Of a stretch of 64,000 nucleotides of DNA, positions 246 through 57,763 are shown piece by piece. Position 1 is the first letter of the stretch, and every line of letters starts with the position of its first letter. Position numbers and translations under genes: made by a program. The notes below the pieces were generated by a model. The model searched no databases, was not told where the DNA came from, and saw only the letters and a list, made by a program, of their open reading frames with translations. Origin of the DNA: an uncultured Candidatus Saccharibacteria bacterium (GTDB lineage: Bacteria; Patescibacteriota; Minisyncoccia; RBG-13-40-8-A); the NCBI GenBank assembly GCA_965231075.1, contig OZ246412.1, positions 463,282 through 527,281 of the forward strand, in the 5' to 3' direction.

Positions 246-1568
246 TTATTCCGTTAGCAATGTCAGCGTTTTGTCTTTATAAACAATTCTCGATCTTAAG
301 TTTCCGAGCAACTCTCTTTTCTCTGATACCGATCCCTCTTTTAAAATATACTTTGCGTAATTTCGTATATCCATATCTTCTCTATTTTTGACCTTATCCG
401 TGCTACCCAATACCGATCTTTGAAATATATTGAATCTTGCAATTTCATCTTCTAATTTTTGTCGCATTCCAAGTTCATTGATATTTACCCTATCCAATAT
501 CTTCAATAACTCGGCAATTAATTCTTCTTCACGAATATATTTGTTCTTACAGTTGCGATCTACACCTCGACTACAACCATAATAAATATAATGAGCTAAG
601 GTGCCATTTTTGAGCGGTTTCCATTTTTCCTCGGCTGATATGCCGGACCCGCAATAACCACACGTAAATAGCTTTGTAAAAGCGAATTCTTTGTTTTCTC
701 TAACTATCTGATCTCGTTTTAATTGCACCTTGGCTTTTTCAAACAAATCTTGAGTGATAATTGGTTCATGTTTGCCGGTATACCAATTTCCGCTTTCTTT
801 GGGATGTTCAAAAACTCCATAATAGAATGGATTATCTAATATACGATAAACTCCACTGAGCGTAAGAGGTTTATTGCCTCTTGTATAAAAATTCAATTCA
901 AATTTAAGCCAGTTATATATCTTTCTACCCGAATAATGTTCAAACGCTACTTTTTCAAACATCTTTTTAATAATCGGTGCTCGCAATGGGTCAATGATGA
1001 TCTGACACTTCTTATCCATATGTTTTTGATTCAAATATCCAAGTGGTGCCATTCCTGGCCACAATCCCATTTCTACTCTTGTTCTTAATCCTCGCTTTAC
1101 ATTAATACCCCTGTTGTCATTTTCTAATTTCGCCTGAGATCCCAAAATCATCAGCAAGAATTTCTCATTTGGATTATTACCAAATCTTTGTCCAAATGTT
1201 CGTATGTCTAAGAGGGCACCCGAATCCATTAAATCTACAATTTTTCCTAAATCGCCAGCATTCCTTGAAATACGATCCGGCGCCCAAGTGAGAATACCAT
1301 TAAATTTACCCTGTTTTAATTCTTCAATAATCTCATTGAAGACTGGCCGTTGTCCAGTTTCTTTAGCTGAGTGCGATTCTCGCTTCATTGTTACTACTTC
1401 TAAATTCTCTCTTTCAGCCAATTGAAGCATCTCTTTGATTTGGCTATCGATAGAAAGGACTTGTCGTTCCTCTGATTCTGTTGATTTCCTCGCGTAAAGA
1501 CAATATTTAATTTTCGTTGGAACTATTGTTTTGCCCGTAGTCCCCATGGGCATTTGCGCTGTATTCAT
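246..1568 (-). CDS. large serine recombinase (resolvase/invertase catalytic domain + recombinase domain + zinc ribbon)
   Basis: N-terminal YARKSTESEERQ..SIDSQ serine-recombinase catalytic motif; C-terminal CGYCGSG...YYGCS zinc-ribbon; 440 aa typical of phage/ICE large serine integrases. Confidence 0.85.
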   Translation of the reverse strand: MNTAQMPMGTTGKTIVPTKIKYCLYARKSTESEERQVLSIDSQIKEMLQLAERENLEVVTMKRESHSAKETGQRPVFNEIIEELKQGKFNGILTWAPDRISRNAGDLGKIVDLMDSGALLDIRTFGQRFGNNPNEKFLLMILGSQAKLENDNRGINVKRGLRTRVEMGLWPGMAPLGYLNQKHMDKKCQIIIDPLRAPIIKKMFEKVAFEHYSGRKIYNWLKFELNFYTRGNKPLTLSGVYRILDNPFYYGVFEHPKESGNWYTGKHEPIITQDLFEKAKVQLKRDQIVRENKEFAFTKLFTCGYCGSGISAEEKWKPLKNGTLAHYIYYGCSRGVDRNCKNKYIREEELIAELLKILDRVNINELGMRQKLEDEIARFNIFQRSVLGSTDKVKNREDMDIRNYAKYILKEGSVSEKRELLGNLRSRIVYKDKTLTLLTE

Positions 1569-3328: not shown

Positions 3329-4650
3329 ACAATTTTTTTGGCTTTTTGGCCAGTTAATTTTTCCCAGCGATATTTAATTACTTCTGTATATACTGGCGAC
3401 TTCTCCATTACATAACAACGTCGTTTCATTTTTTCGGCTGCAATTAAGGTGCTTCCCGACCCACCAAACGGTTCAACGATTAAATCATCGCGTTTGGTTA
3501 AGACTTTAATATATGGAATCAAAATCTCAATTGGCTTCGTGCCAAATACAACTCCTTGTCCGGAGTGTTTAGCATCTTCGGCGCGAAACTCGACGAAATC
3601 GCTTGGACAATATTTTTTTCCACCTTGATATTTTTCCCATTGCGGTTTGCCACTCGTTGCGTAGAGTGCTGTCTCGTATTCGTTTTGTAATAACTCTTCT
3701 TCCGGTTCAATGTTAAGTTGCTTATTTTTGGAACTTCCGACTAACGCAAAATCATATTTGTTGAAGAATTTGTATTTTGCCGAGAATCCCTGAGAACGAT
3801 TAGGCAAATGCCAAATGATCATATTCCGCACACGCCATCGTTTTTCAATTTCTGTCCAAATATGCGGAGCATTCTTCCAATACTCAAACACAATAATGCT
3901 GAAATCTTCTTTTGCAACAGTTTTTATATTCGTCATCCACTGTTCGGTAAAATTATCTGGCAATTCATCTGTTTCAAGATACCGACGATCACGTTTGTAA
4001 CCGAATCCTTTTTTTGTATTACCACGTCGCTTAATGCCCTGGAGGTATGCGAGCAAATAAGGAGGATCAGTGAACGACATATCTGCCTTTTCCCTATTCA
4101 TGAGCTTCAAGATATCTTTTTTAACAGTAGAATCTCCACACATTAAGCGGTGTGGTCCGAGCTGATACACATCGCCTTTCTTTACTTTAATCTTTTTGAT
4201 ATCCAGTTTGGCAAGTTCTTTTTCTAAATCAAACTCTTCTGCTACATCTTCGACCGCAAATATGTTGTCCAATTCTTCTGACGCAAATCCGATATCTGCC
4301 AAAAACGATTCCTTAAAATTAGTTAGCATGTCCCAGTCAAATTCTCCGGTATTTTTATTTAGTCGGATATTTAATTCTTTTTCTCTTTCAATGTCGGCAA
4401 TGTTTAAATACACAACCGGGATTTCTTTAAATTTTAATTCTTTAGCCGCCCGCAATCTCATGTGACCACCAATTACAACATTTTTTCTATTTGAAGCAAT
4501 GTTTACAATTATTGGATCAACTATTTGGAACCGCTTTATGCTTTTCTTCAGCTGTTCCATTGATTCTTTACTAATTTTTCGAGGATTATATTCGGATGGC
4601 TTAAGTTCGTTTATTGGAACATAAACGATATTTAGTTTATTATTTTGCAT
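3325..4650 (-). CDS. ParB-like nuclease domain fused to beta-class N6A/N4C DNA methyltransferase
   Basis: N-terminal ParB/Srx fold motif (NPRKISKESMEQLKKSIKRFQIVDPIIV...GGHMRLRAAKEL); C-terminal methyltransferase motif IV TDPPY followed by motif I EPFGGSGST. Confidence 0.8.
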   Translation of the reverse strand: MQNNKLNIVYVPINELKPSEYNPRKISKESMEQLKKSIKRFQIVDPIIVNIASNRKNVVIGGHMRLRAAKELKFKEIPVVYLNIADIEREKELNIRLNKNTGEFDWDMLTNFKESFLADIGFASEELDNIFAVEDVAEEFDLEKELAKLDIKKIKVKKGDVYQLGPHRLMCGDSTVKKDILKLMNREKADMSFTDPPYLLAYLQGIKRRGNTKKGFGYKRDRRYLETDELPDNFTEQWMTNIKTVAKEDFSIIVFEYWKNAPHIWTEIEKRWRVRNMIIWHLPNRSQGFSAKYKFFNKYDFALVGSSKNKQLNIEPEEELLQNEYETALYATSGKPQWEKYQGGKKYCPSDFVEFRAEDAKHSGQGVVFGTKPIEILIPYIKVLTKRDDLIVEPFGGSGSTLIAAEKMKRRCYVMEKSPVYTEVIKYRWEKLTGQKAKKIV

Positions 4651-30232: not shown

Positions 30233-31885
30233 ATGAAAAAAATTGCTCAAATTATGCTTATTCCCACAACAATCATTTTACTGATCGTTGTTTTTGTAGT
30301 CTCGCTTTACACATTAAATGCCGAAAAAATAAATTACGGAACCAAAATTGCCGGACAAACAATTGGTGGACTATCGCCAGACGAAGCAATCGATAAACTT
30401 TCTAATTATTTCCAAGAGATAACTAATCAAAATTTCAACTTGGTCTACCAAGATAAAATCTGGACAATTAATTTAAAAAACCTAGGCATTAATATTGATG
30501 TTCACGCCACCGTTAATTTGGCTTTCGAACGTGGCCATCAATCTGGAAAATTAGTCAAAAATATTTTTTGGCAGATCAAATCATTACTGGGACTAAACCA
30601 AGCGTTGGCCTACGATATCGAAGACGCAAAAATTGAAAAATTTTTCCAAGAGAATCTCGCAATTATTCATCGACCAGCAAGAAATTCTCTTTTAGTTTAC
30701 AACAAAGAAAATAATGATTTTAACATCAGCGAATCAAGGTTTGGGACCATTATCAACAAGGATAAATTTCGAAAAGATATTGAAAAAAATATTTATCATT
30801 TCGAAGCCCAATCAATTTATTTAGACCTTGAAAATGACGAGCCAACCACAACCGAAGAACAGGCTAAAAAATTAATCCCTCGAGCTAAAGAATTGATTAA
30901 TCTTGCGCCAGTTACAATTACCGTTAATGGGAAGAAGGTAAACGAAATTACTATTGAAGATATTTTAGAATTAACCGAACCAGTTCCTGAATTAAATGAG
31001 CATAAAATAGAAAATTATCTTGTCTCACTTGCTCCATCAGTAGCCCAAGAACCGATTAATGCTCAATTGACAGTGGTCGATAACAAGGCCACAGCGTTCT
31101 CTTTATCTCAGGATGGAATACAGTTAGAAATCAGAAACAATATTGAAATTTTAAAAAACGGCCTACTCAATGGCGATAAAGAAATTGTTCTGAAAACGAT
31201 TAACACCAAGCCCGAAATTTCCACAGAAAATATCAACAATCTTGGCATCACTTCTTTTCTTGCTAAAGGTGTTTCTAATTTTTCGGGATCTTCGGCCAAC
31301 AGAATCACCAATATAAAAATTGGAGCAGCTAAATTTAACGGCGTATTAATTAAACCAAACGAAGAATTTTCTTTCAATAAATTATTGGGTGATGTCGGCC
31401 CCGAACAAGGATATAAGCCAGGATTGGTGATCAAGGACAACAAAACCATTCCTGAATACGGGGGTGGATTGTGTCAGGTTTCAACCACGGCATTTAGAGC
31501 AGCGGTCTATTCTGGCATGGAGATTACCAAGCGCTTCCCTCACGCATTTCCCGTGAAATACTATAATCCTCAAGGATTTGATGCGACTATCTATCCCCCT
31601 ATGCCAGATCTTAGATTTATTAACAATACCCCTGGACACATCCTTATACAAACCAAAATTGTCGGCAACGAATTAATTTTTGAATTTTATGGGACAAACG
31701 ACAACAGAAAGATTGAAGTTATTGGACCAGAACAATATGATTTACAGCCCGATGGCGCAATGAAAGCGAAGCTCACACAAAAAGTCTACGACAACAATGG
31801 AAATGTTATCATTGATAAAACTTTTTATTCAAATTATAAATCGCCGAGTCTGTACCCCGAAGAGATAATCAACCCCCTTCAATGA
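30233..31885 (+). CDS. VanW-family protein with N-terminal TM anchor
   Basis: YGGGLCQVSTTAFRAAVYSGMEITKR VanW core motif. Confidence 0.8.
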   Translation: MKKIAQIMLIPTTIILLIVVFVVSLYTLNAEKINYGTKIAGQTIGGLSPDEAIDKLSNYFQEITNQNFNLVYQDKIWTINLKNLGINIDVHATVNLAFERGHQSGKLVKNIFWQIKSLLGLNQALAYDIEDAKIEKFFQENLAIIHRPARNSLLVYNKENNDFNISESRFGTIINKDKFRKDIEKNIYHFEAQSIYLDLENDEPTTTEEQAKKLIPRAKELINLAPVTITVNGKKVNEITIEDILELTEPVPELNEHKIENYLVSLAPSVAQEPINAQLTVVDNKATAFSLSQDGIQLEIRNNIEILKNGLLNGDKEIVLKTINTKPEISTENINNLGITSFLAKGVSNFSGSSANRITNIKIGAAKFNGVLIKPNEEFSFNKLLGDVGPEQGYKPGLVIKDNKTIPEYGGGLCQVSTTAFRAAVYSGMEITKRFPHAFPVKYYNPQGFDATIYPPMPDLRFINNTPGHILIQTKIVGNELIFEFYGTNDNRKIEVIGPEQYDLQPDGAMKAKLTQKVYDNNGNVIIDKTFYSNYKSPSLYPEEIINPLQ

Positions 31886-41504: not shown

Positions 41505-43319
41505 ATGAAAACATTTATTAAAAATATTCTAATTGCGTTTTTTGTTTTGCTTTTTATTTCAGCAATTTTTACGGCTTATAATTCTTCATACAAGATTTCC
41601 GAAAATATTCCCCTAAATCAAGTGGTTACTCTGATTAATGAAGATAAAATTGAGAAAATAACCATTCAGGAAAACAAGCTCACCATAGATTTAAAAGACA
41701 AGACTCAAAAAACTAGTCGGAAAGAGGGAGAACTGGGACTAAGCGAAACCTTGAAAAATTTAGGCGTTAATGAAGAAAAACTAAAAACTTTAAATTTTGA
41801 AATCAAAGAACAGTCTGGGACAATGTATTGGTTGAATATTATTTTGCCGTTTGTCTTGCCATTTCTTTTGATCGGTGCATTTATTTGGTTTATGTTGAAA
41901 CAAGCACAAAAGGGACAAACCCAAGCTATGTCCTTCGGCAAAGCCAATGCTCGTTTAAACCAGCCCGAAAAAGGCAAGAAAGTAACCTTTAAAGATGTTG
42001 CTGGCATCGAACAAGCCAAGGAAGAGCTGAAAGAAATTGTTGAATTCTTAAAAACCCCACAAAAATTCATTGATATCGGCGCAAAAATTCCGCGTGGAGT
42101 TCTTTTAATGGGTCCTCCGGGATGTGGCAAAACACTACTAGCTCGCGCCGTTGCCGGAGAGAGTGATGTCCCCTTCTTCCATATTTCAGGATCAGAATTT
42201 GTGGAAATGTTTGTGGGAGTTGGTGCTTCTCGAGTTAGAGATTTATTTATGACGGCTAAAAAAATGGCTCCAGCAATTATTTTCATTGATGAAATTGACG
42301 CCGTGGGCAGGCATCGTGGTGCAGGATTGGGCGGTGGACACGATGAGCGCGAACAAACCTTAAATCAAATTTTGGTTGAAATGGATGGATTTGATAACAA
42401 TACCAATCTAATTGTCATTGCCGCAACCAATCGACCAGACATTTTAGACCCAGCACTGTTAAGACCGGGTAGATTTGATCGCCGTGTTGTTTTAGATATG
42501 CCCGATATTAATGAAAGAGAAGATATTTTGAAAATTCACGCTAAAAACAAAAAGTTTACCGAAGAAGTAAAATTAAGACAATTAGCCGAAAGAACTCCTG
42601 GATTTTCAGGAGCAGATTTGGCCAACTTGGTTAATGAGGCAGCAATTTTAGCAGCGCGCAAAAATCAAAAATCAATCACACAATTAGATTTAATTAATTC
42701 AATTGAAAAAGTTTTACTTGGCCCAGAAAGAAAAAGTCATATCTATACAAAAAAAGAAAAAGAAATTGCTGCTTATCATGAAGCCGGGCATGCTTTAGTT
42801 AATGCCAGCTTAAAACATACCAATCCTGTACACAAAGTTTCAATTATTTCTCGTGGCATGGCCGGTGGTTATACTTTGACTATGCCCGAAGAAGATAAAC
42901 ACTTACACTCTCGTTCAGAATTTATCGAAGAACTTTCAGTTTTGTTGGGTGGTTATTGTGCCGAAAAATTAATTTTTAACGAAATTACTACTGGTGCCTC
43001 TAATGACCTCAAGGTTGCTTCTGGGATAGCTAGAGATCTGGTTTCTAAATATGGAATGTCAGAAAAACTAGGACCGGTTGCGTTTAATGATCATGACGAG
43101 TTAGTGTTTCTGGGTAAAGAAATTTCTGAGGGCAAAAATTATTCAGAAAAAGTTGCTTCAGAAATTGACGAAGAAATCAAGAAATTTATTCATGACGCGC
43201 GATTAGTAACTGAAAAAATTCTTAAGACCAAAAAAACCAAATTAATTCTGATTGCCAAAGAACTGATTGAAAAAGAAACAATCGAAAAAGACGAATTTAA
43301 AGCACTGATAAGTAAATAG
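41505..43319 (+). CDS. ftsH: ATP-dependent zinc metalloprotease FtsH
   Basis: AAA+ GPPGCGKT Walker [10 protein letters not shown] Walker B, HEAGHA zinc motif; start taken at MKTFIKN. Confidence 0.95.
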
Positions 43320-43329
43320 CACAATTCAC

Positions 43330-43389
43330 GGGCGTGTAGCTCAGCTGGTTAGCCTCTGGCCCTACGGGCCATAGGCCCGGAGGGAGCAC
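43330..43389 (+). pseudogene. 5' fragment of tRNA-Ile gene (first 22 nt identical to 43667-43688) interrupted by 33-nt GC-rich insert, then gagcac
   Basis: gggcgtgtagctcagctggtta identical to the intact tRNA start 337 bp downstream. Confidence 0.6.
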
Positions 43390-43398
43390 TCATATGAC

Positions 43399-43650
43399 AT
43401 GTTTTACGTTTATCTTTTGAAAAGCTTAAAAGACAACAATTATTATATTGGTCAAACCGACAATATTAAAAGCAGATTAGATTACCATAACGGCGGGAAA
43501 GTTAAATCAACGAAGAATCGAATACCGTTTATTCTAATCGGAACAGAAGAATATCAAACGAGAAATGAATCGAGATGGCATGAATACACATTAAAGAATA
43601 ATACAAACGAAAAGCGAAAATTTATAAATAAATTTTCGCCCAAACCATAA
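43399..43650 (+). CDS. stand-alone GIY-YIG nuclease domain protein
   Basis: 83 aa; VYLLKS..YYIGQT..R..H..G GIY-YIG core. Confidence 0.7.
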   Translation: MFYVYLLKSLKDNNYYIGQTDNIKSRLDYHNGGKVKSTKNRIPFILIGTEEYQTRNESRWHEYTLKNNTNEKRKFINKFSPKP

Positions 43651-43666
43651 AATTAAGACCATTGTC

Positions 43667-43740
43667 GGGCGTGTAGCTCAGCTGGTTAGAGCACGGCTCT
43701 TATAAAGCCGGGGTCGATGGTTCGAGTCCATCCACGCCCA
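43667..43740 (+). tRNA. tRNA-Ile (anticodon TAT)
   Basis: acceptor gggcgtg/cacgccc, D gctc/gagc, anticodon stem cggct/agccg loop cttataa, T-arm gatgg ttcgagt ccatc. Confidence 0.85.
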
Positions 43741-43745
43741 TTTTT

Positions 43746-43774
43746 AAAACCCCCCGCAGTGCGGGGGGTTTTAT
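43746..43774. terminator. bidirectional GC hairpin terminator between tRNA-Ile (+) and speH-like gene (-)
   Basis: aaaacccccc gcagt gcgggggg tttt. Confidence 0.7.
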
Positions 43775-44465: not shown

Positions 44466-44540
44466 GGGCGTGTAGTTCAGTGGTAGAACGCTACATTGAC
44501 ATTGTAGAGATCGGAGGTTCGATCCCTCCCGCGCCCACCA
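44466..44540 (+). tRNA. tRNA-Val (anticodon GAC), CCA encoded
   Basis: acceptor gggcgtg/cgcgccc, anticodon stem ctaca/tgtag loop ttgacat, T-arm ggagg ttcgatc cctcc, then acca. Confidence 0.9.
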
Positions 44541-45190
44541 TGGAAATACCAACCATTTTCGAGGACGACAATATTGTTATCATAAATAAGCCGGCGGGAT
44601 TATTAGTTCATCCGGTTACCAACGAAAAAGATACTCTAATCGATATTTTAAAAATCAAACACCCTAATGCTGAATTGGTTCACCGATTAGATCAAGACAC
44701 TTCTGGCGTAATGGTTATAGCAAAAAACAATCAGATCGCAGAATTTTTAAAACAACAATTCAAAGATAGAATTATCAAGAAAAAATACGTTGCCCTAGTT
44801 TATGGGATTTTAAAAGAAAAAAAGGGCATTATCGTTAAATCGATTTCCAAATCCAGAAAAAGGGGTGGCTCACAAACCATCGCACCAATTGGAAAAAATC
44901 GCGAAGCGGTTACAAGATACGAAGTTGTTCAAGAATTTGCTGATTATTCCTTATTAGAAGTTTCTCCCGAGACTGGCAGAACCCACCAAATTAGAGTTCA
45001 TCTCGCATCAATTGGGCATCCAATTGTCGGAGATGAAAAATATAAATTTAAAAGACAAAAAACAATCGAAGGTCTTAATCGGCAATTTTTACATGCTAAA
45101 TATTTAAAACTTTCTCTGCTTGACGGAGAAATAAAAGAGTTCTATGCTGAATTACCAGAAGAACTAAGTAATATATTAAAAAATATATGA
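44540..45190 (+). CDS. RluA-family pseudouridine synthase
   Basis: HRLDQDTSGVMVIAKN catalytic Asp motif; start placed at MEIPTIF because the upstream part of the ORF overlaps the tRNA. Confidence 0.85.
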   Translation: MEIPTIFEDDNIVIINKPAGLLVHPVTNEKDTLIDILKIKHPNAELVHRLDQDTSGVMVIAKNNQIAEFLKQQFKDRIIKKKYVALVYGILKEKKGIIVKSISKSRKRGGSQTIAPIGKNREAVTRYEVVQEFADYSLLEVSPETGRTHQIRVHLASIGHPIVGDEKYKFKRQKTIEGLNRQFLHAKYLKLSLLDGEIKEFYAELPEELSNILKNI

Positions 45191-45564
45191 CCAATAAATT
45201 AGATAAATTTAAAGAAAAATTTGTGAAGAAAGATATCCCAGAAATTAGAACTGGTGATATTGTTAAAGTTCACATCAAACTTGCCGAAAAGACAAAGGCT
45301 GGCGGAGACAAAATCCAGATTTTTGAAGGACTGGTAATTGCCAAGAAACACGGAAAGGGAATGGAGGGAACTTTTACGGTTAGAAAAATCGCTGAAGGGG
45401 TGGGAGTGGAAAAGGTATTCCCTCTTCAATGCCCAACAATTTCTAAAATTGAAATCGTTAAGCACTCAAAAGTAAGACGCGCAAAACTTTATTACATGAG
45501 AGGAAGAATTGGAAAGAAAGCAAGAATGTCCGCCCTCGCCGAACCTACTACCGAAGCGAAATAA
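45187..45564 (+). CDS. rplS: 50S ribosomal protein L19
   Basis: GDIVKVHIKLAEKTKAGGDKIQIFEGLVIAKKHGKGMEGTFTVRK. Confidence 0.95.
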   Translation: MTNKLDKFKEKFVKKDIPEIRTGDIVKVHIKLAEKTKAGGDKIQIFEGLVIAKKHGKGMEGTFTVRKIAEGVGVEKVFPLQCPTISKIEIVKHSKVRRAKLYYMRGRIGKKARMSALAEPTTEAK

Positions 45565-45570
45565 TCTTCC

Positions 45571-45654
45571 GCGCGGGTGCTGTAATTGGTAGCCAGGCTA
45601 GCCTAAGGAGCTAGTGGGAATTATCCCGTGGAGGTTCGAGTCCTCTCCCGCGCA
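45571..45654 (+). tRNA. tRNA-Leu, type II; anticodon loop ctaagga reads AAG by my fold (unusual)
   Basis: acceptor gcgcggg/cccgcgc, anticodon stem ctagc/gctag, long variable arm, T-arm ggagg ttcgagt cctct. Confidence 0.75.
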
Positions 45655-45730
45655 TCAGATTAGATCCGACACGTCCGGTAATCAATTGTTAAATAAAAAA
45701 TTACGACTTTACGGGTCGTAATTTTTTTGT

Positions 45731-45805
45731 TGGAGCGGAAGACGGGATTCGCACCCGCGACCTTCTCCTTGGCAAGGAGACGTTCTGCTGCTGAACTACT
45801 TCCGC
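45731..45805 (-). tRNA. tRNA-Gly (anticodon GCC), CCA encoded
   Basis: minus strand gcggaag...cttccgc t cca; anticodon stem tctcc/ggaga loop ttgccaa; T-loop tgcgaat noncanonical. Confidence 0.8.
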
Positions 45806-45809
45806 AAGA

Positions 45810-45881
45810 TGCCGAGGGAGAGAATCGGACTCTCGACACCACGATTTTCAGTCGTGTGCTCTACCACTGAGCTACCCCGGC
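45810..45881 (-). tRNA. tRNA-Phe (anticodon GAA)
   Basis: minus strand gccgggg ta gctc agtggta gagc; anticodon stem cacga/tcgtg loop ctgaaaa; T-loop tccgatt. Confidence 0.8.
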
Positions 45882-45914
45882 GTAATTTTATATTTATGAT
45901 ATCTTATCGTTATT

Positions 45915-46481
45915 TTATTGTAAAGGTTGAAGTACAATTTGTGACTCACCATTAATGCATTGATCAGCATCAAATCCTTGGTTTATCATTAACTGTTCTG
46001 CATAAATTGGAATCGTGTTTCCATTAGATAAGTTGCCCTGCACTCCAACATAAATTCCGGGAGGAATCGTGCATCCGTATCTAGTTGCTCCTAATGGCCA
46101 ATAATTATAATCGTACTCTCCTCCCCAAGGGGTAGTATCTGGCCAATTATTTGTATACGGTCCAGACCAATTTTGATTTATAATTGTTGTCCAGTTTGAC
46201 GGACAATGATCGCATGGGACAATATAGCTTTCGCCTGTAACATAATCATATGGCAATGAATGAGCTAGTCCAGGATCCCACCCCCTACTCACATCAGGAG
46301 GATAAAATCCCATATCGTTATAATAAAATTCTACCGCCAGTGCAAGATTTTTTGCTGTGCTCCCCGCCCCCACAACCCTTCCTTTTTCTTTAGCATTATT
46401 CATGCTCACTAAAACGATAGTTGCCAACAAACCAATAATTGCGATTACAACTAGAAGTTCTATCAATGTAAAGCTTTTCAT
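45915..46481 (-). CDS. type IV pilin / pseudopilin (prepilin N-terminal methylation motif)
   Basis: MKSFTLIELLVVIAIIGLLATIV class III signal peptide. Confidence 0.75.
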   Translation of the reverse strand: MKSFTLIELLVVIAIIGLLATIVLVSMNNAKEKGRVVGAGSTAKNLALAVEFYYNDMGFYPPDVSRGWDPGLAHSLPYDYVTGESYIVPCDHCPSNWTTIINQNWSGPYTNNWPDTTPWGGEYDYNYWPLGATRYGCTIPPGIYVGVQGNLSNGNTIPIYAEQLMINQGFDADQCINGESQIVLQPLQ

Positions 46482-46497
46482 TTTTTAAATATTTTAG

Positions 46498-46569
46498 AGG
46501 CCAGGATGGGAATCGAACCCATGTATAAGAGTTTTGCAGACTCATGCCTTACCACTTGGCGACCTGGCC
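46498..46569 (-). tRNA. tRNA-Cys (anticodon GCA)
   Basis: minus strand ggccagg...cctggcc; anticodon loop ctgcaaa; T-arm atggg ttcgatt cccat. Confidence 0.75.
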
Positions 46570-46575
46570 AATATG

Positions 46576-46647
46576 TGGGCGATGTAGGAGTCGAACCTAC
46601 CGTATTCTGCGTGTAGAGCAGACGTTTTACCGATAAACTAATCGCCC
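46576..46647 (-). tRNA. tRNA-Val (anticodon TAC)
   Basis: minus strand gggcgat ta gttt atcggta aaac; anticodon stem tctgc/gcaga loop tctacac; T-arm gtagg ttcgact cctac. Confidence 0.75.
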
Positions 46648-46706
46648 CTGCTGAGCCCCGCCTTCGCTAAAGCTACGGCGGGCAAGTAAACGCCCCAACA
46701 ACCATG

Positions 46707-46789
46707 TGCCGGGGGCGGGACTCGAACCCGCACGGTCGTGAGACCACAAGATTTTAAGTCTTGCGTGGCTGCCATTACACCACCCCGGC
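46707..46789 (-). tRNA. tRNA-Leu (anticodon TAA), type II
   Basis: minus strand gccgggg...ccccggc; anticodon stem caaga/tcttg loop cttaaaa; T-arm gcggg ttcgagt cccgc. Confidence 0.9.
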
Positions 46790-55209: not shown

Positions 55210-55281
55210 TACCCTCAGTAGGAATCGGACCTACATCACCTGCTTAGAAGGCAGGTGCTCTATCCATTGAGCTATGAGGGC
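55210..55281 (-). tRNA. tRNA-Arg (anticodon TCT)
   Basis: minus strand gccctca ta gctc aatggata gagc; anticodon stem cctgc/gcagg loop cttctaa; T-arm gtagg tccgatt cctac. Confidence 0.8.
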
Positions 55282-55288
55282 AAAAATC

Positions 55289-57763
55289 TTAAAATTTCCT
55301 TTTTTTCACATCTATTGGCTTCATCTTTTTGAGGATTTTTGTCTCTAGCTCCTTGCTGGATAATTGTTCTCTTTTGAATAGTCCTGAAAATAATCTATTT
55401 AAAAATCCTTTTCTATTTTTCTTCTCTTTTAACCTATAAGGTGGAGCTGCTTCTTCTCTGTTTGAATTGCCCAATATTACGCCACCATCATAAAGTGCTT
55501 GCTTTATATCTTCTTCGCTTAATTCGGCAAATTTTATTGATTCTTTCGGAGTTTCAATTTCTTGTTCTGTTTTTTTTGTCTCTACGCTGCCAGACACAAT
55601 TATATCTGTTTTAATCTTATCGGCTATCTTGCGCATCACTTCCGGATCCACTGGATTAATATTTTCTTTTTTCGCCTCTACCTTCTTTCGGTTGCCCAGT
55701 CTAAGTTCTTGTTGTCTTTGTTTTTGTAGTTCTTTTAGTTCGCCTTTAAGTCTTTCTAGTTCGGAATTTATCCCATAATAACCCAAATCCCTGACTACTG
55801 GTTTTTTCCTAAACCAGCCCAATGGTCGGTAGATTGCCATTCTTTGCTCGGCTTGTTCAATTTCTTTGTTTTTTCTTTCTATTTTTTGAAGAATGTTCTC
55901 TTCGGCTTCAGTTTTTATTTCAACTTTAATTTCTCCAGCAACGGTTGTTTCCGACACTTCTTTCTCCTTGTCTGCGCCAGATATGTATTTTTCTAACTCA
56001 CTTCCTGGTAATATCTTAGCATCAATCCTATCTAAGATATCCTTTAAATTCAACTTTTCGTTCGCATCTGTTCGCGGAACTATCCATAAATGTTCTCTGA
56101 TTCTCAAACCAACATCAAATAGACTCTTGTCCAACTCTTTGTCTGAGAATATGAAGAAACTTTTTCCTGTTGTGTCCCACTTAAAATAACTTGCCCCTAC
56201 CGATTGAGCAGCAAAAGCTCCTCCTGGCAATTCACCTTTTACGTCGATTACTGTTTTCCCAAGTTTGGTTTCAATAATAAACCCTTTTTGTTCAAATTCT
56301 TTTAGTTTGTCTTTTGAGACCTCTATAACCTTCCTCTGTTGTTCTTGTCGGTTAATTTTTCTCATTTTCCCATTTTCTTCAATCTCGCCAATCAAATTAT
56401 ATTTCTTTAATTCCTCTTCTGTTAATTCTCGGTTGTAACCACTGTCCTCTCTGAAAAATTTCAATAATTCAGGAAAGTCCATAAATCGATGCAACCCCAA
56501 AATCGTTTTATCTGACTTGTTCCAATTTTCTGGTTTACCAATTTCTTGATAACCCTGACTGTCAATTAAATCAATAAATTCGATCATTCTAGGAATTGCC
56601 TCTATGTCATTACGCTTTATTCTTTTGTTGTTTTCAAACATTCTAAGTTTGTCGAGCAGTTTAAACACCATTCCGGCTGCCGATGGAGCGCCGTCTGGAT
56701 GATGGTCAATGATCATCCCCATATTAAATAACGGATTTTTATCTTTTCTTTCGAGTTTTATCGCTTCTTTATCGTCTAGGTCTAGTACCTGTAATTCGTT
56801 TTCTACTTCTCTTAAAATACCCACCCCATTATATTGACCGACGTCCATGTGGATTTTGTTCTTGGATCTTTCGTTGGGGTTAATGTACGAGATACTACCC
56901 TTTTTTGTATCGTTCCAGCCAGCTAATCCGAGCAATCCCAAACAAACCTTCCCGTCTAGATCTGTTTCTTGATTACTCCACGCAACATTGTGAACTGCAA
57001 AATTTCTGAACGCATAGGGAATCGTTTTTTTAAATTTTTCTTTTAGGTTGTCTATGGCTTGACCATAAATGTCTTCATACGAATATCGCTCTTTTCCTTT
57101 TTCCAGCTTTTTCTCAACCTTGTCCATTTCCCGGCCAATCTTTTCTTTAATCCATAAATCAATAGCTTCTTCCCATGTCAATTTTTCCGACTTAGCTCCC
57201 GTCTCTGTTTCTGTCTTTATTATCGTTTCTGGTTCTGTTTCTTCTGTCGTCGATTGATTTTCCTTGTTTTCAACAACGGGAATATCTTCGGCAATTCTTT
57301 CCGCCATTTTTCTCAATGACTCGTCTACCGAATCAATTGGTGGATCCAATAATATTGGTCTCTTTGAAGATCGTTCTGGTTTAGTTTTTCTTTGAGGTTT
57401 TTGTTCTCGGTATAAGTTCCTGCATACTTGTTCCCATTTATCAATTTCCTCTTGCGGTCGGTTGTTCTTTCTGGCAAATTCTAACGCCTCCTGTGCTTCT
57501 TTTAGTGAACGATCAGGAATTGTTTCTTCGTGTGCAGGGAGAAACCCCTTAACATCTTCTGCGGTATTGTTAGAGGGTTTTTTTGTTTCGTCTTTTTCTT
57601 CTTGTGCTGTTTGTTCTACTTCTTCTGGCAATATTTCACCTGGCAATAAGTCTGCACGTTCCATGTCTTCGGGACTCAAAATTCTGACCTTTTTAGTTCT
57701 TTTGGGTTTAGTAGATTTTAATTTTTCAGTTTTTTCGCCAATTCTCTCTCTTGATCTAGACAT
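55289..57763 (-). CDS. large DHH-family phosphoesterase-like protein with charged low-complexity N- and C-terminal extensions
   Basis: central MIIDHHPDG (DHH motif III) and GGAFAAQS (DHHA1-like) segments; KE-rich N-terminus and coiled-coil C-terminus; 824 aa. Confidence 0.4.
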   Translation of the reverse strand: MSRSRERIGEKTEKLKSTKPKRTKKVRILSPEDMERADLLPGEILPEEVEQTAQEEKDETKKPSNNTAEDVKGFLPAHEETIPDRSLKEAQEALEFARKNNRPQEEIDKWEQVCRNLYREQKPQRKTKPERSSKRPILLDPPIDSVDESLRKMAERIAEDIPVVENKENQSTTEETEPETIIKTETETGAKSEKLTWEEAIDLWIKEKIGREMDKVEKKLEKGKERYSYEDIYGQAIDNLKEKFKKTIPYAFRNFAVHNVAWSNQETDLDGKVCLGLLGLAGWNDTKKGSISYINPNERSKNKIHMDVGQYNGVGILREVENELQVLDLDDKEAIKLERKDKNPLFNMGMIIDHHPDGAPSAAGMVFKLLDKLRMFENNKRIKRNDIEAIPRMIEFIDLIDSQGYQEIGKPENWNKSDKTILGLHRFMDFPELLKFFREDSGYNRELTEEELKKYNLIGEIEENGKMRKINRQEQQRKVIEVSKDKLKEFEQKGFIIETKLGKTVIDVKGELPGGAFAAQSVGASYFKWDTTGKSFFIFSDKELDKSLFDVGLRIREHLWIVPRTDANEKLNLKDILDRIDAKILPGSELEKYISGADKEKEVSETTVAGEIKVEIKTEAEENILQKIERKNKEIEQAEQRMAIYRPLGWFRKKPVVRDLGYYGINSELERLKGELKELQKQRQQELRLGNRKKVEAKKENINPVDPEVMRKIADKIKTDIIVSGSVETKKTEQEIETPKESIKFAELSEEDIKQALYDGGVILGNSNREEAAPPYRLKEKKNRKGFLNRLFSGLFKREQLSSKELETKILKKMKPIDVKKRKF

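Follow-up and report, generated by a model that had tools for sequence, protein, structure and literature searches.

The window analysed here, a 64,000-nucleotide stretch of contig OZ246412.1 from an uncultured Candidatus Saccharibacteria bacterium, contains a cassette of ∼337 bp (43330-43666) at the junction of the ftsH gene and a tRNA-Ile(UAU) gene. Judged by how its closest homologues are named, this is a Patescibacteria bacterium of the candidate phyla radiation close to ‘Candidatus Portnoybacteria’. The cassette consists of an orphan copy of the tRNA 5′ end, a GC palindrome set into the D-loop of that copy, and a gene for an 83-amino-acid GIY-YIG nuclease, after which the intact tRNA gene follows. 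It is probably a free-standing, homing-endonuclease-like cassette that lives in tRNA transcription units and regenerates the tRNA gene that it interrupts. The observations behind this reading are insertion polymorphism at the junction, linkage of the gene family to tRNA genes with orphan copies, amplification in arrays, purifying selection on the nuclease gene, and linkage between the hairpin and the gene.

The first 22 nt of the tRNA-Ile gene (GGGCGTGTAGCTCAGCTGGTTA) occur exactly twice in the window, once in the orphan copy and once at the start of the intact gene, as an earlier sequence-only reading of the locus had stated; no chance copy is expected in the window, even with three mismatches. 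The GC insert described in that reading is present, with a length of 32 nt rather than 33 nt if the ‘gagcac’ that follows it is counted as tRNA (correctly recognized as the next nucleotides of the gene, positions 23-28), the extra G being ambiguous. The 83-amino-acid ORF (open reading frame) and the intact tRNA 16 nt past its stop codon were also described correctly. A single tRNA-Ile was called in the segment by both ARAGORN and Rfam. An Rfam scan of the segment (E ≤ 10) detected no group I intron or other family besides tRNA, which upholds the exclusion of a group I intron, previously argued from the downstream tRNA having its own 5′ half. The GIY-YIG ORF is the sole ORF between the repeats, with no recombinase gene between them or nearby. 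In the window, tblastn with 56 homologues matched just 43399-43647 and no second GIY-YIG gene; weak matches at 31655-31798 and 55256-55501 were dismissed because they sit within unrelated long ORFs.

Contigs carrying orthologues of FtsH (604 amino acids, 68-100% identity) were fetched for comparison of the junction. The window locus is designated WIN, and L-numbers denote the fetched comparison loci, which comprise genome loci and metagenome contigs. The common gene order is FtsH, tRNA-Ile, AdoMet decarboxylase, tRNA-Val, RluA, and L19. The comparison with related genomes that had been proposed for this locus reveals both filled and empty junctions. In L096/L097 (FtsH ∼80%) and L223 (74%), the tRNA-Ile gene starts 3-5 nt past the ftsH stop codon without fragment, hairpin, or ORF, and is followed by a terminator, AdoMet decarboxylase (minus strand), tRNA-Val, RluA, and L19, as in the window. 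In L095 (FtsH 81%) and L224 (75%), the ftsH frame stops at the TAG of tRNA positions 8-10, so the two genes overlap (L095 3812-3821; L224 3312-3321); the genes further downstream again match those of the window. The junction of L100/L101 has no ORF and retains a ∼15-nt duplicate of the tRNA 5′ end that abuts the tRNA; the ftsH stop codon of L100 is the equivalent TAG within this orphan duplicate (3800-3815).

The filled layout of the window recurs in L001-L006 (FtsH 88%, GIY-YIG protein 93%), L225 (85% for both proteins), L007-L010 (75% and 79%), and L227. Its recurrence across many independent assemblies, with one entry (P0001) alone indexed in 95 blocks of the collection and 22 carrying contigs read, makes an assembly artefact unlikely. 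In a neighbour-joining tree of FtsH, the filled lineages do not group together: the sister group of the window clade consists of L222 and the empty L095 and L097, with L007/L008 branching outside. As the filled lineages are split by empty ones, either one gain and one precise loss or two gains are required.

The sequence-only reading took the arrangement for the scar of an insertion at the 5′ end of the tRNA and considered that identical boundaries across divergent relatives would instead indicate an ancient fixed leader. Insertion at the 5′ side is supported by the syntenic relatives with an empty site. The term scar is wrong, because purifying selection acts on the ORF with the same strength as on FtsH. 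The boundaries are kept in five lineages with FtsH identity down to ∼75%, so that by the criterion of that reading the cassette is old and constrained within the clade, and the absence of the cassette from nested lineages argues against a universal fixed leader. Constrained yet missing from lineages nested among filled ones, the cassette is thus neither of the two.

The orphan is conserved at 21-22 of 22 positions in L001, L007, and L225, and that of L227 carries the D-loop variant of its own tRNA. Orphan and hairpin are ∼90-95% identical across filled lineages, with compensatory changes in the hairpin and ‘gagcac’ kept, while divergence is seen in the 9-nt leader and in the spacers ahead of the orphan and after the ORF. 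In L007 and L227, the homology of the orphan extends to the anticodon and is directly followed by the start codon. These two loci have no post-ORF spacer, and the stop codon of the ORF is the TAG at tRNA positions 8-10. The spacer ahead of the tRNA in the empty L097 (‘ttctc’) matches the spacer ahead of the orphan in the filled L225 (‘ttctt’), which identifies the orphan as the original tRNA 5′ end that stayed in position. Regarding exchange between orphan and tRNA, position 2 has changed in both copies in the window lineage, and in L001 and L005 the tRNA has diverged while the orphan is unchanged, leaving a gene conversion reading ambiguous.

The ftsH/tRNA-Ile junction is a hotspot that also holds other genes. 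A different GIY-YIG gene of 84 amino acids occupies it in L098/L099 (FtsH 74%; L098 3805-4110), and this gene lies between perfect 12-bp inverted repeats, CCCCACACCTAA...TTAGGTGTGGGG. The core of this repeat is also present in the 23S rRNA gene of another Patescibacteria metagenome-assembled genome (MAG; L044 ∼1440-1790), where it borders an inserted GIY-YIG ORF. In L222 (FtsH 80%), the junction is occupied by an unrelated ORF of 221 amino acids with an N-terminal helix-turn-helix (3393-4058); L098 and L222 stem from one metagenome (JGI 3300031999). Its interpretation as a LAGLIDADG endonuclease, based on a motif-like stretch seen by eye, was rejected as Pfam, PHROGs, and PDB gave only helix-turn-helix matches. 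Away from the junction, a second, divergent GIY-YIG gene is found by tRNA-Gly(GCC) on the minus strand of L001 and L005 (4898-5252) and is absent from L002 and L004 (4257-4328). The four contigs encode an identical window-type GIY-YIG protein, so the second gene is a presence/absence polymorphism among close relatives.

The product of the window gene matches the Pfam GIY-YIG family (PF01541), scoring 48.3 bits (cutoff, 22.6 bits; E = 1.3e-12). The catalytic Tyr, Tyr, Arg, His, and Glu residues (Y5, Y16, R26, H30, and E62) are invariant in 26 homologues, and the nuclease is apparently catalytically competent. The best solved relatives are the UPF0213 proteins BH0048 and EF2693 (1zg2, E = 7.3e-8; 1ywl, E = 3.1e-6; residues 2-79), in keeping with the earlier assignment as UPF0213/YhbQ-like, and the SLX1 structure 4xlg gives only a weak match (E = 0.53). 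The ratio of nonsynonymous to synonymous divergence (dN/dS) of the ORF is 0.04 between WIN and L001 and 0.09 between WIN and L007, at proportions of synonymous differences (pS) of 0.51 and 0.67, respectively; for the same pairs, FtsH gives 0.05-0.06 at pS 0.65-0.74. The synonymous sites of the filled lineages are near saturation, and the layout is nonetheless kept. A search for phage homologues of the 83-amino-acid protein found none, and comparison with defence-system families yielded a weak PDC-S14 match only. The 3′ end of the ORF contains an A/T-rich palindrome of ∼26 nt with equivalents in L001, L007, and L225, which could be a DNA- or RNA-level constraint or a mere consequence of codon usage.

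The association with tRNA genes extends throughout the family. When one genome per species was scanned with an alignment of 11 sequences, 80 loci (78 non-redundant) emerged, representing Patescibacteria, Ignavibacteriota, Bacteroidota, Calditrichia, Acidobacteriota, and a few MAGs labelled archaeal. The ORF lies ≤100 nt from a same-strand tRNA in 51 of the 78 loci, where less than 1% would be expected by chance according to a rough estimate. Counted by ORF, 31 have the tRNA upstream and 23 have it downstream, and the orientation of tRNA and ORF agrees for 70 of the 72 tRNAs in these loci. The linked tRNAs comprise Pro, Ala, Ser, Glu, Asn, Asp, Arg, Leu, Met, and Trp, and several of the ORFs stop within the tRNA, either at the TAG formed by positions 8-10 or in the D-loop. 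Beyond the ORF, part of the linked tRNA is repeated (local alignment score ≥28) in 40 of 51 loci versus 5 of 47 control regions. The polarity of the orphan depends on the side: it is a 5′ part if the tRNA is downstream of the ORF and a 3′ part if the tRNA is upstream. L177 displays the exact architecture of the window at tRNA-Asn. L022 and L024 show this plan at a protein gene, where an orphan 5′ copy with the hairpin inserted precedes the ORF and then the complete gene.

The long orphans can be described as disarmed: the D-arm and T-arm are kept and the anticodon arm is swapped for a tight GC hairpin with a 3-5-nt loop. The sequence TCCCGAT-loop-ATCGGGA recurs in orphan copies of Ala, Ser, Glu, and Asp tRNAs (L042, L065, L088, L045, L038, and L027), and TCCCGC-TTCG-GCGGGA and TCCGCC…GGCGGA are found in other disarmed pseudo-tRNAs. 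Some loci contain tandem arrays in which a unit of spacer, GIY-YIG ORF, and orphan tRNA piece is repeated beside one intact tRNA. Copies within an array are 92-96% identical, with the exception of the degenerate units of L068. Near-identical copies are also present at contig ends within one genome, including that of the isolate Flavobacterium terrigena DSM 17934 (L074 and L087); this end placement, seen in several genomes, suggests that assembly is interrupted at the arrays. Brumimicrobium salinarum LHR20 (L072) and Rubrolithibacter danxiaensis (L090) are further cultivable carriers. A single tRNA-Pro has different GIY-YIG ORFs on its two sides in L043 and L056. As to the mobile association that had been suspected for GIY-YIG genes of this size, the family shows signs of it in presence/absence, tandem arrays, inverted-repeat-flanked variants, and many tRNA targets. 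Together, the data point to a widespread tRNA-associated selfish element across many phyla.

Other family members and their neighbours merit description. GIY-YIG ORFs were found inside protein-coding genes in L055 (∼1090-1380), L067 (∼1460-1790), and L158 (∼470-720, minus strand). By reading, the host genes are a four-helix-bundle ‘23S rRNA IVS protein’-like type and an IS200-like/REP-transposase-like type, and the ORFs of L055 and L067 are flanked by the inverted repeat CCCYGTSAAATA/TATTTSACRGGG. In a Sphingobacteriales MAG (L066 1265-1340), a tRNA with anticodon UUA, called ‘tRNA-Stop’ by ARAGORN, is located beside a GIY-YIG cassette. It may be either a pseudogene or a tRNA of the ochre-suppressor-like kind; at the same position, tRNA-Gln(UUG) is found in a related Chitinophaga MAG (L064 1265-1341).

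The hairpin in the orphan belongs to a widespread palindrome family. As single-stranded DNA, the palindrome of the window folds with -11.1 kcal/mol (z = -2.9 versus shuffles), and its 3′ arm (CCGGAGG) has an alternative pairing with the 5′ arm; as an RNA fold, the 91-nt leader is no better than shuffles (z = -1.5). There are no further copies in the 64-kb window. A pattern scan (CCTCYGGCCC…GGCCCRGAGG) identified at least 120 metagenome stretches (L102-L221) in contigs of 28-66% G+C, with palindromes of 31-32 nt that are nearly alike across contigs. The inner stem covaries among distinct copies (C-G 9, T-A 7, C-A 3, T-G 2), and the two differences between the hairpins of the window and L001 form one covarying pair. 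A GIY-YIG gene is present at ∼5% of the listed hairpin sites (6 of 120 loci). Conversely, all six GIY-YIG genes of the family in 686 kb of hairpin-bearing contigs lie ≤350 nt from a hairpin, four of them ≤18 nt, and none lies >600 nt from a hairpin in 556 kb. With bases ≤600 nt from a hairpin making up 19%, the nearest measured baseline, the chance of six out of six is ∼0.19^6, or roughly 5e-5. The palindrome family is thus significantly linked to these GIY-YIG genes.

The placement of the hairpin is recurrent. A window-type hairpin occupies the same D-loop position (…GGT(T)A | GAGC…) in orphans of other tRNAs (L025, L177, L183, and L188), including a 3′ orphan of tRNA-Lys (L105); in L210, the hairpin follows position 9. 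In L225, another copy separates the ORF from the intact tRNA, so that hairpins stand on both sides of the ORF. Tandem dimers related to the hairpin are located just 3′ of the ORF, ahead of the ribosome-binding site of the next gene, in L011, L019, L020, L023, and L182. Many ‘type 2’ matches are tandem dimers of a 15-16-nt unit, centred in other inverted or direct repeats. The hairpins are mostly intergenic. Insertion in frame into coding sequence, as in the palindromic elements of Rickettsia, was considered and applies to a minority only, as 18 of 122 hairpins lie in long open frames compared with 73 of 201 control windows. In-frame copies were noted by reading of translations in ychF (L193), uvrA (L219), and the N-terminus of an aminoacyl-tRNA synthetase (L159).

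Coordinates of the cassette and its surroundings in the window (WIN), and of disarmed pseudo-tRNAs and tandem arrays in comparison loci
Feature	Position	Strand	Remarks
ftsH	41505..43319	+	Upstream neighbour; stop codon 10 nt ahead of the orphan tRNA piece; ORF list
Orphan copy of tRNA-Ile positions 1-22	43330..43351	+	5′ acceptor strand, D-stem 5′ strand, and D-loop; 22/22 match to 43667-43688
32-nt GC palindrome in the orphan D-loop	43352..43383	+	CCTCYGGCCC-nnn-GGGCCR-nn-GGCCCRGAGG family
Orphan copy, continued (‘gagcac’)	43384..43389	+	Equals tRNA-Ile positions 23-28; sequence
Variable 9-nt leader ahead of the start codon	43390..43398	+	Differs among WIN, L001, and L007
83-amino-acid GIY-YIG nuclease gene, UPF0213/Slx1-like, catalytic domain alone	43399..43650	+	Pfam and PDB matches, invariant residues, dN/dS
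A/T-rich palindrome (GCGAAAATTTATAAATAAATTTTCGC) in the ORF 3′ end	43612..43641	.	Encodes conserved KFINKF motif; flagged in terminator scan, minus strand
16-nt spacer, ORF stop codon to tRNA	43651..43666	+	Missing in L007 and L227; second GC palindrome instead in L225
Intact tRNA-Ile(UAU)	43667..43740	+	ARAGORN; Rfam tRNA 72.8 bits
Intrinsic-terminator-like hairpin closing the ftsH-cassette-tRNA-Ile unit	43745..43773	+	13-pair stem followed by T run; terminator scan
Disarmed pseudo-tRNAs	L042 1740-1798; L065; L088; L045 1743-1819; L038 1044-1102; L027 1425-1483; L060 1740-1804; L092 1739-1799		
Tandem array	L060 1440-2540		Three 365-nt units
Tandem array	L068 230-2190		Five ORF copies/fragments
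Tandem array	L045 1500-2130		Two units

Movement of the cassette would begin with a double-strand break in or beside a tRNA gene that is repaired by copying from a cassette-bearing template, with the conserved tRNA segments providing the homology for break-induced copying. The left tRNA piece is the displaced original 5′ part, which retains its native ftsH-proximal context, and in relatives that appear less eroded the orphan is homologous up to the anticodon loop. The complete tRNA to the right of the nuclease gene may have had its 5′ part supplied or duplicated at insertion, and with the tRNA thus regenerated, the essential tRNA-Ile(UAU) would stay functional. The orphan probably marks the retained side of the break, with an end-point in the anticodon loop here and variable end-points elsewhere. 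Arrays may result from out-of-register repair or from unequal exchange between tRNA and orphan. Such a repair-copying model would explain the many tRNA sites, the tRNA orientation, the side-dependent orphan ends, and the tandem arrays. We infer the activity and target of the nuclease, the repair-mediated copying, co-transcription with the tRNA, the role of the hairpin, and the mode of movement from these patterns.

The ORF is probably expressed by read-through from the ftsH or tRNA promoter and freed by tRNA processing. No terminator between ftsH and tRNA-Ile was found in the terminator scan, in which a strong hairpin appears only after the tRNA, and the cassette ORF has no evident terminator and no strong promoter of its own; a terminator-like GC hairpin with a T run is present at the equivalent place in the empty-site L097 and L223. 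The 32-nt palindrome belongs to its separate, widespread family, which accompanies this nuclease clade, and its conservation suggests a service to the cassette. It may interrupt a direct repeat that would otherwise delete the cassette, destroy the nuclease or recombination site in the orphan, or provide a 5′ RNA structure.

Several points weigh against a homing-like element. All comparison sequences are MAG or metagenome contigs. Intact tRNAs in filled genomes show no consistent difference from empty-site tRNAs, so that an enzyme cutting tRNA-Ile DNA would also cut the copy of its own host. The 83 amino acids are entirely taken up by the catalytic domain, leaving no DNA-binding module to specify a long recognition site. 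The divergence of the GIY-YIG protein tracks that of FtsH (93/79% versus 88/75% amino acid identity), and for this clade, long vertical inheritance with one loss fits no worse than repeated homing. A function that benefits the host could account just as well for the strong conservation of ORF, orphan, and hairpin. One rival explanation, which we consider unlikely, is a domesticated host gene with a tRNA-linked role in processing, repair, or quality control, co-expressed in tRNA operons, with the orphan and hairpin as a leader or processing signal. A dN/dS as low as that of FtsH, an age comparable to the split of the host lineages, the retention of orphan and hairpin while spacers diverge, and the strict co-orientation with tRNAs are in its favour. 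Genomic associations are also relevant, among them those with COG4123, presumably the tRNA m6A37 methyltransferase TrmN6. A 2006 survey of the superfamily found prokaryotic Slx1-like GIY-YIG domains fused to or in operons with methyltransferases, including an orthologue of TrmH (tRNA Gm18) and COG4123, and its authors regarded these arrangements as suggestive of a role in RNA metabolism (PMC1564403), which supports a host function. However, the gene is dispensable, as close syntenic relatives lack it and others have unrelated ORFs at the same junction. Tandem arrays and near-identical copies within one genome, family members inserted in rRNA and inside protein genes, and orphan pieces that are unable to fold as tRNA because one acceptor strand is missing are likewise at odds with domestication.

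A transposon based on the hairpin is about as doubtful as a host gene. Here, a Slx1-like structure-specific nuclease would mobilize palindromic DNA, tRNA and rRNA genes would be targeted for their hairpin-forming DNA, and hairpins without an ORF would be non-autonomous, comparable with repetitive extragenic palindromes and their REP-associated tyrosine transposases (REP/RAYT) or miniature transposable elements with inverted repeats (MITEs). The proximity of all six GIY-YIG genes in 686 kb to a hairpin within 350 nt fits this proposal, as do the hairpins 5′ or 3′ of the closest homologues (L011, L016, L019, L020, and L022-L025), the hairpin on each side of the L225 ORF, and the occupation of the same D-loop site in orphans of several tRNAs. 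ORFs in the loop of perfect inverted repeats in 23S rRNA, protein genes, and the ftsH/tRNA-Ile spacer (L044, L055, L067, and L098), and UPF0213 proteins as the closest solved relatives with Slx1 as a weak match, are also compatible. Yet the gene is present at only ∼5% of the hairpin sites listed (6 of 120 loci), the 64-kb window has no second hairpin, and the sequence past the hairpin is still target-derived, which implies that the hairpin is not the end of the cassette. Short ORF-less derivatives of the CCCCACACCT inverted repeat are absent from the fetched loci, and we know of no GIY-YIG transposase in prokaryotes. A broader proposition, bold and improbable at present, is that small UPF0213/Slx1-like GIY-YIG proteins are the nucleases of a so far unrecognized class of minimal mobile elements in prokaryotes, directed at DNA secondary structure instead of long sequence sites; these would colonize tRNA and rRNA genes, regenerate them through a carried or duplicated gene end, and mobilize GC palindromes as non-autonomous partners, with the disarmed pseudo-tRNAs as a functional part. 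By far the least plausible explanation is a relic of another element, either an anticodon-loop group I intron that has degenerated or an att duplication from a decayed integrase island. Integrative elements do leave partial tRNA duplicates, and the orphans of L007 and L227 end at the anticodon, the classic position of tRNA introns. Against a relic, there is no ribozyme match or nearby recombinase gene, only ∼25 nt outside the ORF are neither tRNA nor hairpin, the downstream tRNA is complete with a 5′ half, the duplication concerns the 5′ end, and the insert measures no more than 337 bp; the layout is, moreover, repeated at dozens of other tRNAs with this ORF alone.

The preferred homing-like cassette can be compared with known systems. 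SegB of phage T4 is a free-standing GIY-YIG homing endonuclease whose gene lies in a tRNA cluster; the T-psi-C motif conserved in tRNA genes forms part of its site, and the enzyme drives the inheritance of itself and the flanking tRNA genes (PMC2330249). Segmental amplification of tRNA loci has been connected with SegB in a 2026 report (PMC13096335). The cassette resembles SegB as a stand-alone GIY-YIG gene among tRNA genes, and the reported amplification parallels the tandem arrays. In contrast, SegB is a phage protein with extra DNA-binding regions, whereas the cassette encodes an 83-amino-acid, UPF0213/Slx1-like catalytic domain on a bacterial chromosome. To our knowledge, SegB has no counterpart of the orphan tRNA copy in which a hairpin is inserted or substituted. 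In fungal mitochondria, free-standing GIY-YIG and LAGLIDADG genes occur together with a partially duplicated neighbouring gene (atp9, atp6, or cox1), of which one copy is functional and the other a pseudogene (PMC7487136). The common theme is an endonuclease ORF at the end of a host gene together with a partial duplicate of that gene. The fungal targets are organelle protein genes, while the targets here are mainly bacterial tRNA genes and those of a few MAGs labelled archaeal, and the orphan copy is conserved with a specific palindrome rather than decaying.

Integrative elements that target tRNA genes (attL/attR) similarly regenerate the gene from an inserted tRNA segment and leave a partial direct repeat. 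They differ from the cassette, which has no integrase, a 0.3-kb insert, a duplicate of the 5′ end, and a palindrome-interrupted repeat; insertion by an integrase usually duplicates the 3′ end of the tRNA. REP/RAYT systems, MITEs, and the palindromic elements of Rickettsia share a short GC palindrome at many sites, sometimes in ORFs without a stop (18 of 122 here), statistically linked to one enzyme gene. Unlike REP/RAYT, the linked gene encodes a GIY-YIG protein and not an HUH/Y1 transposase, and the sites are counted across contigs with one copy in the window; unlike the Rickettsia elements, most copies are intergenic and the in-frame habit is that of a minority. Slx1 and the UPF0213 proteins (YhbQ, BH0048, and EF2693) have the same single small GIY-YIG domain, the latter giving the best solved-structure matches. 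Eukaryotic Slx1 contains a RING domain and acts with Slx4 on branched DNA. We know of no established function for the bacterial UPF0213 proteins. Searches of the literature found no description of GIY-YIG/UPF0213 linkage to tRNA genes with orphan copies, although work in subscription journals may exist. The element is rated as a variant of an already known kind, the free-standing endonuclease gene with a duplicated target-gene end.

UPF0213/YhbQ-type GIY-YIG proteins are among the commonest small ‘endonuclease’ annotations in bacterial genomes. The large share of one clade that resides in tRNA units with an orphan piece offers testable biology, namely selfish cassettes that take advantage of genes which are essential, strongly transcribed, and conserved universally, yet leave them functional. 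If true, homing-like elements would extend to bacterial chromosomes, including the reduced genomes of the candidate phyla radiation, and some annotated tRNA-gene fragments and pseudo-tRNAs would be explained. The nucleases are very small, and their target rules are of possible practical interest. The analysis also brings to light a GC palindrome family common to contigs of 28-66% G+C.

The tRNA gene content of the surrounding region is also of note. The window harbours 16 tRNA genes in 64 kb, seven of which are packed into 2.3 kb on both strands (44466-46789). The order and content of this cluster vary among relatives, as between L002 and L001 and in L100.

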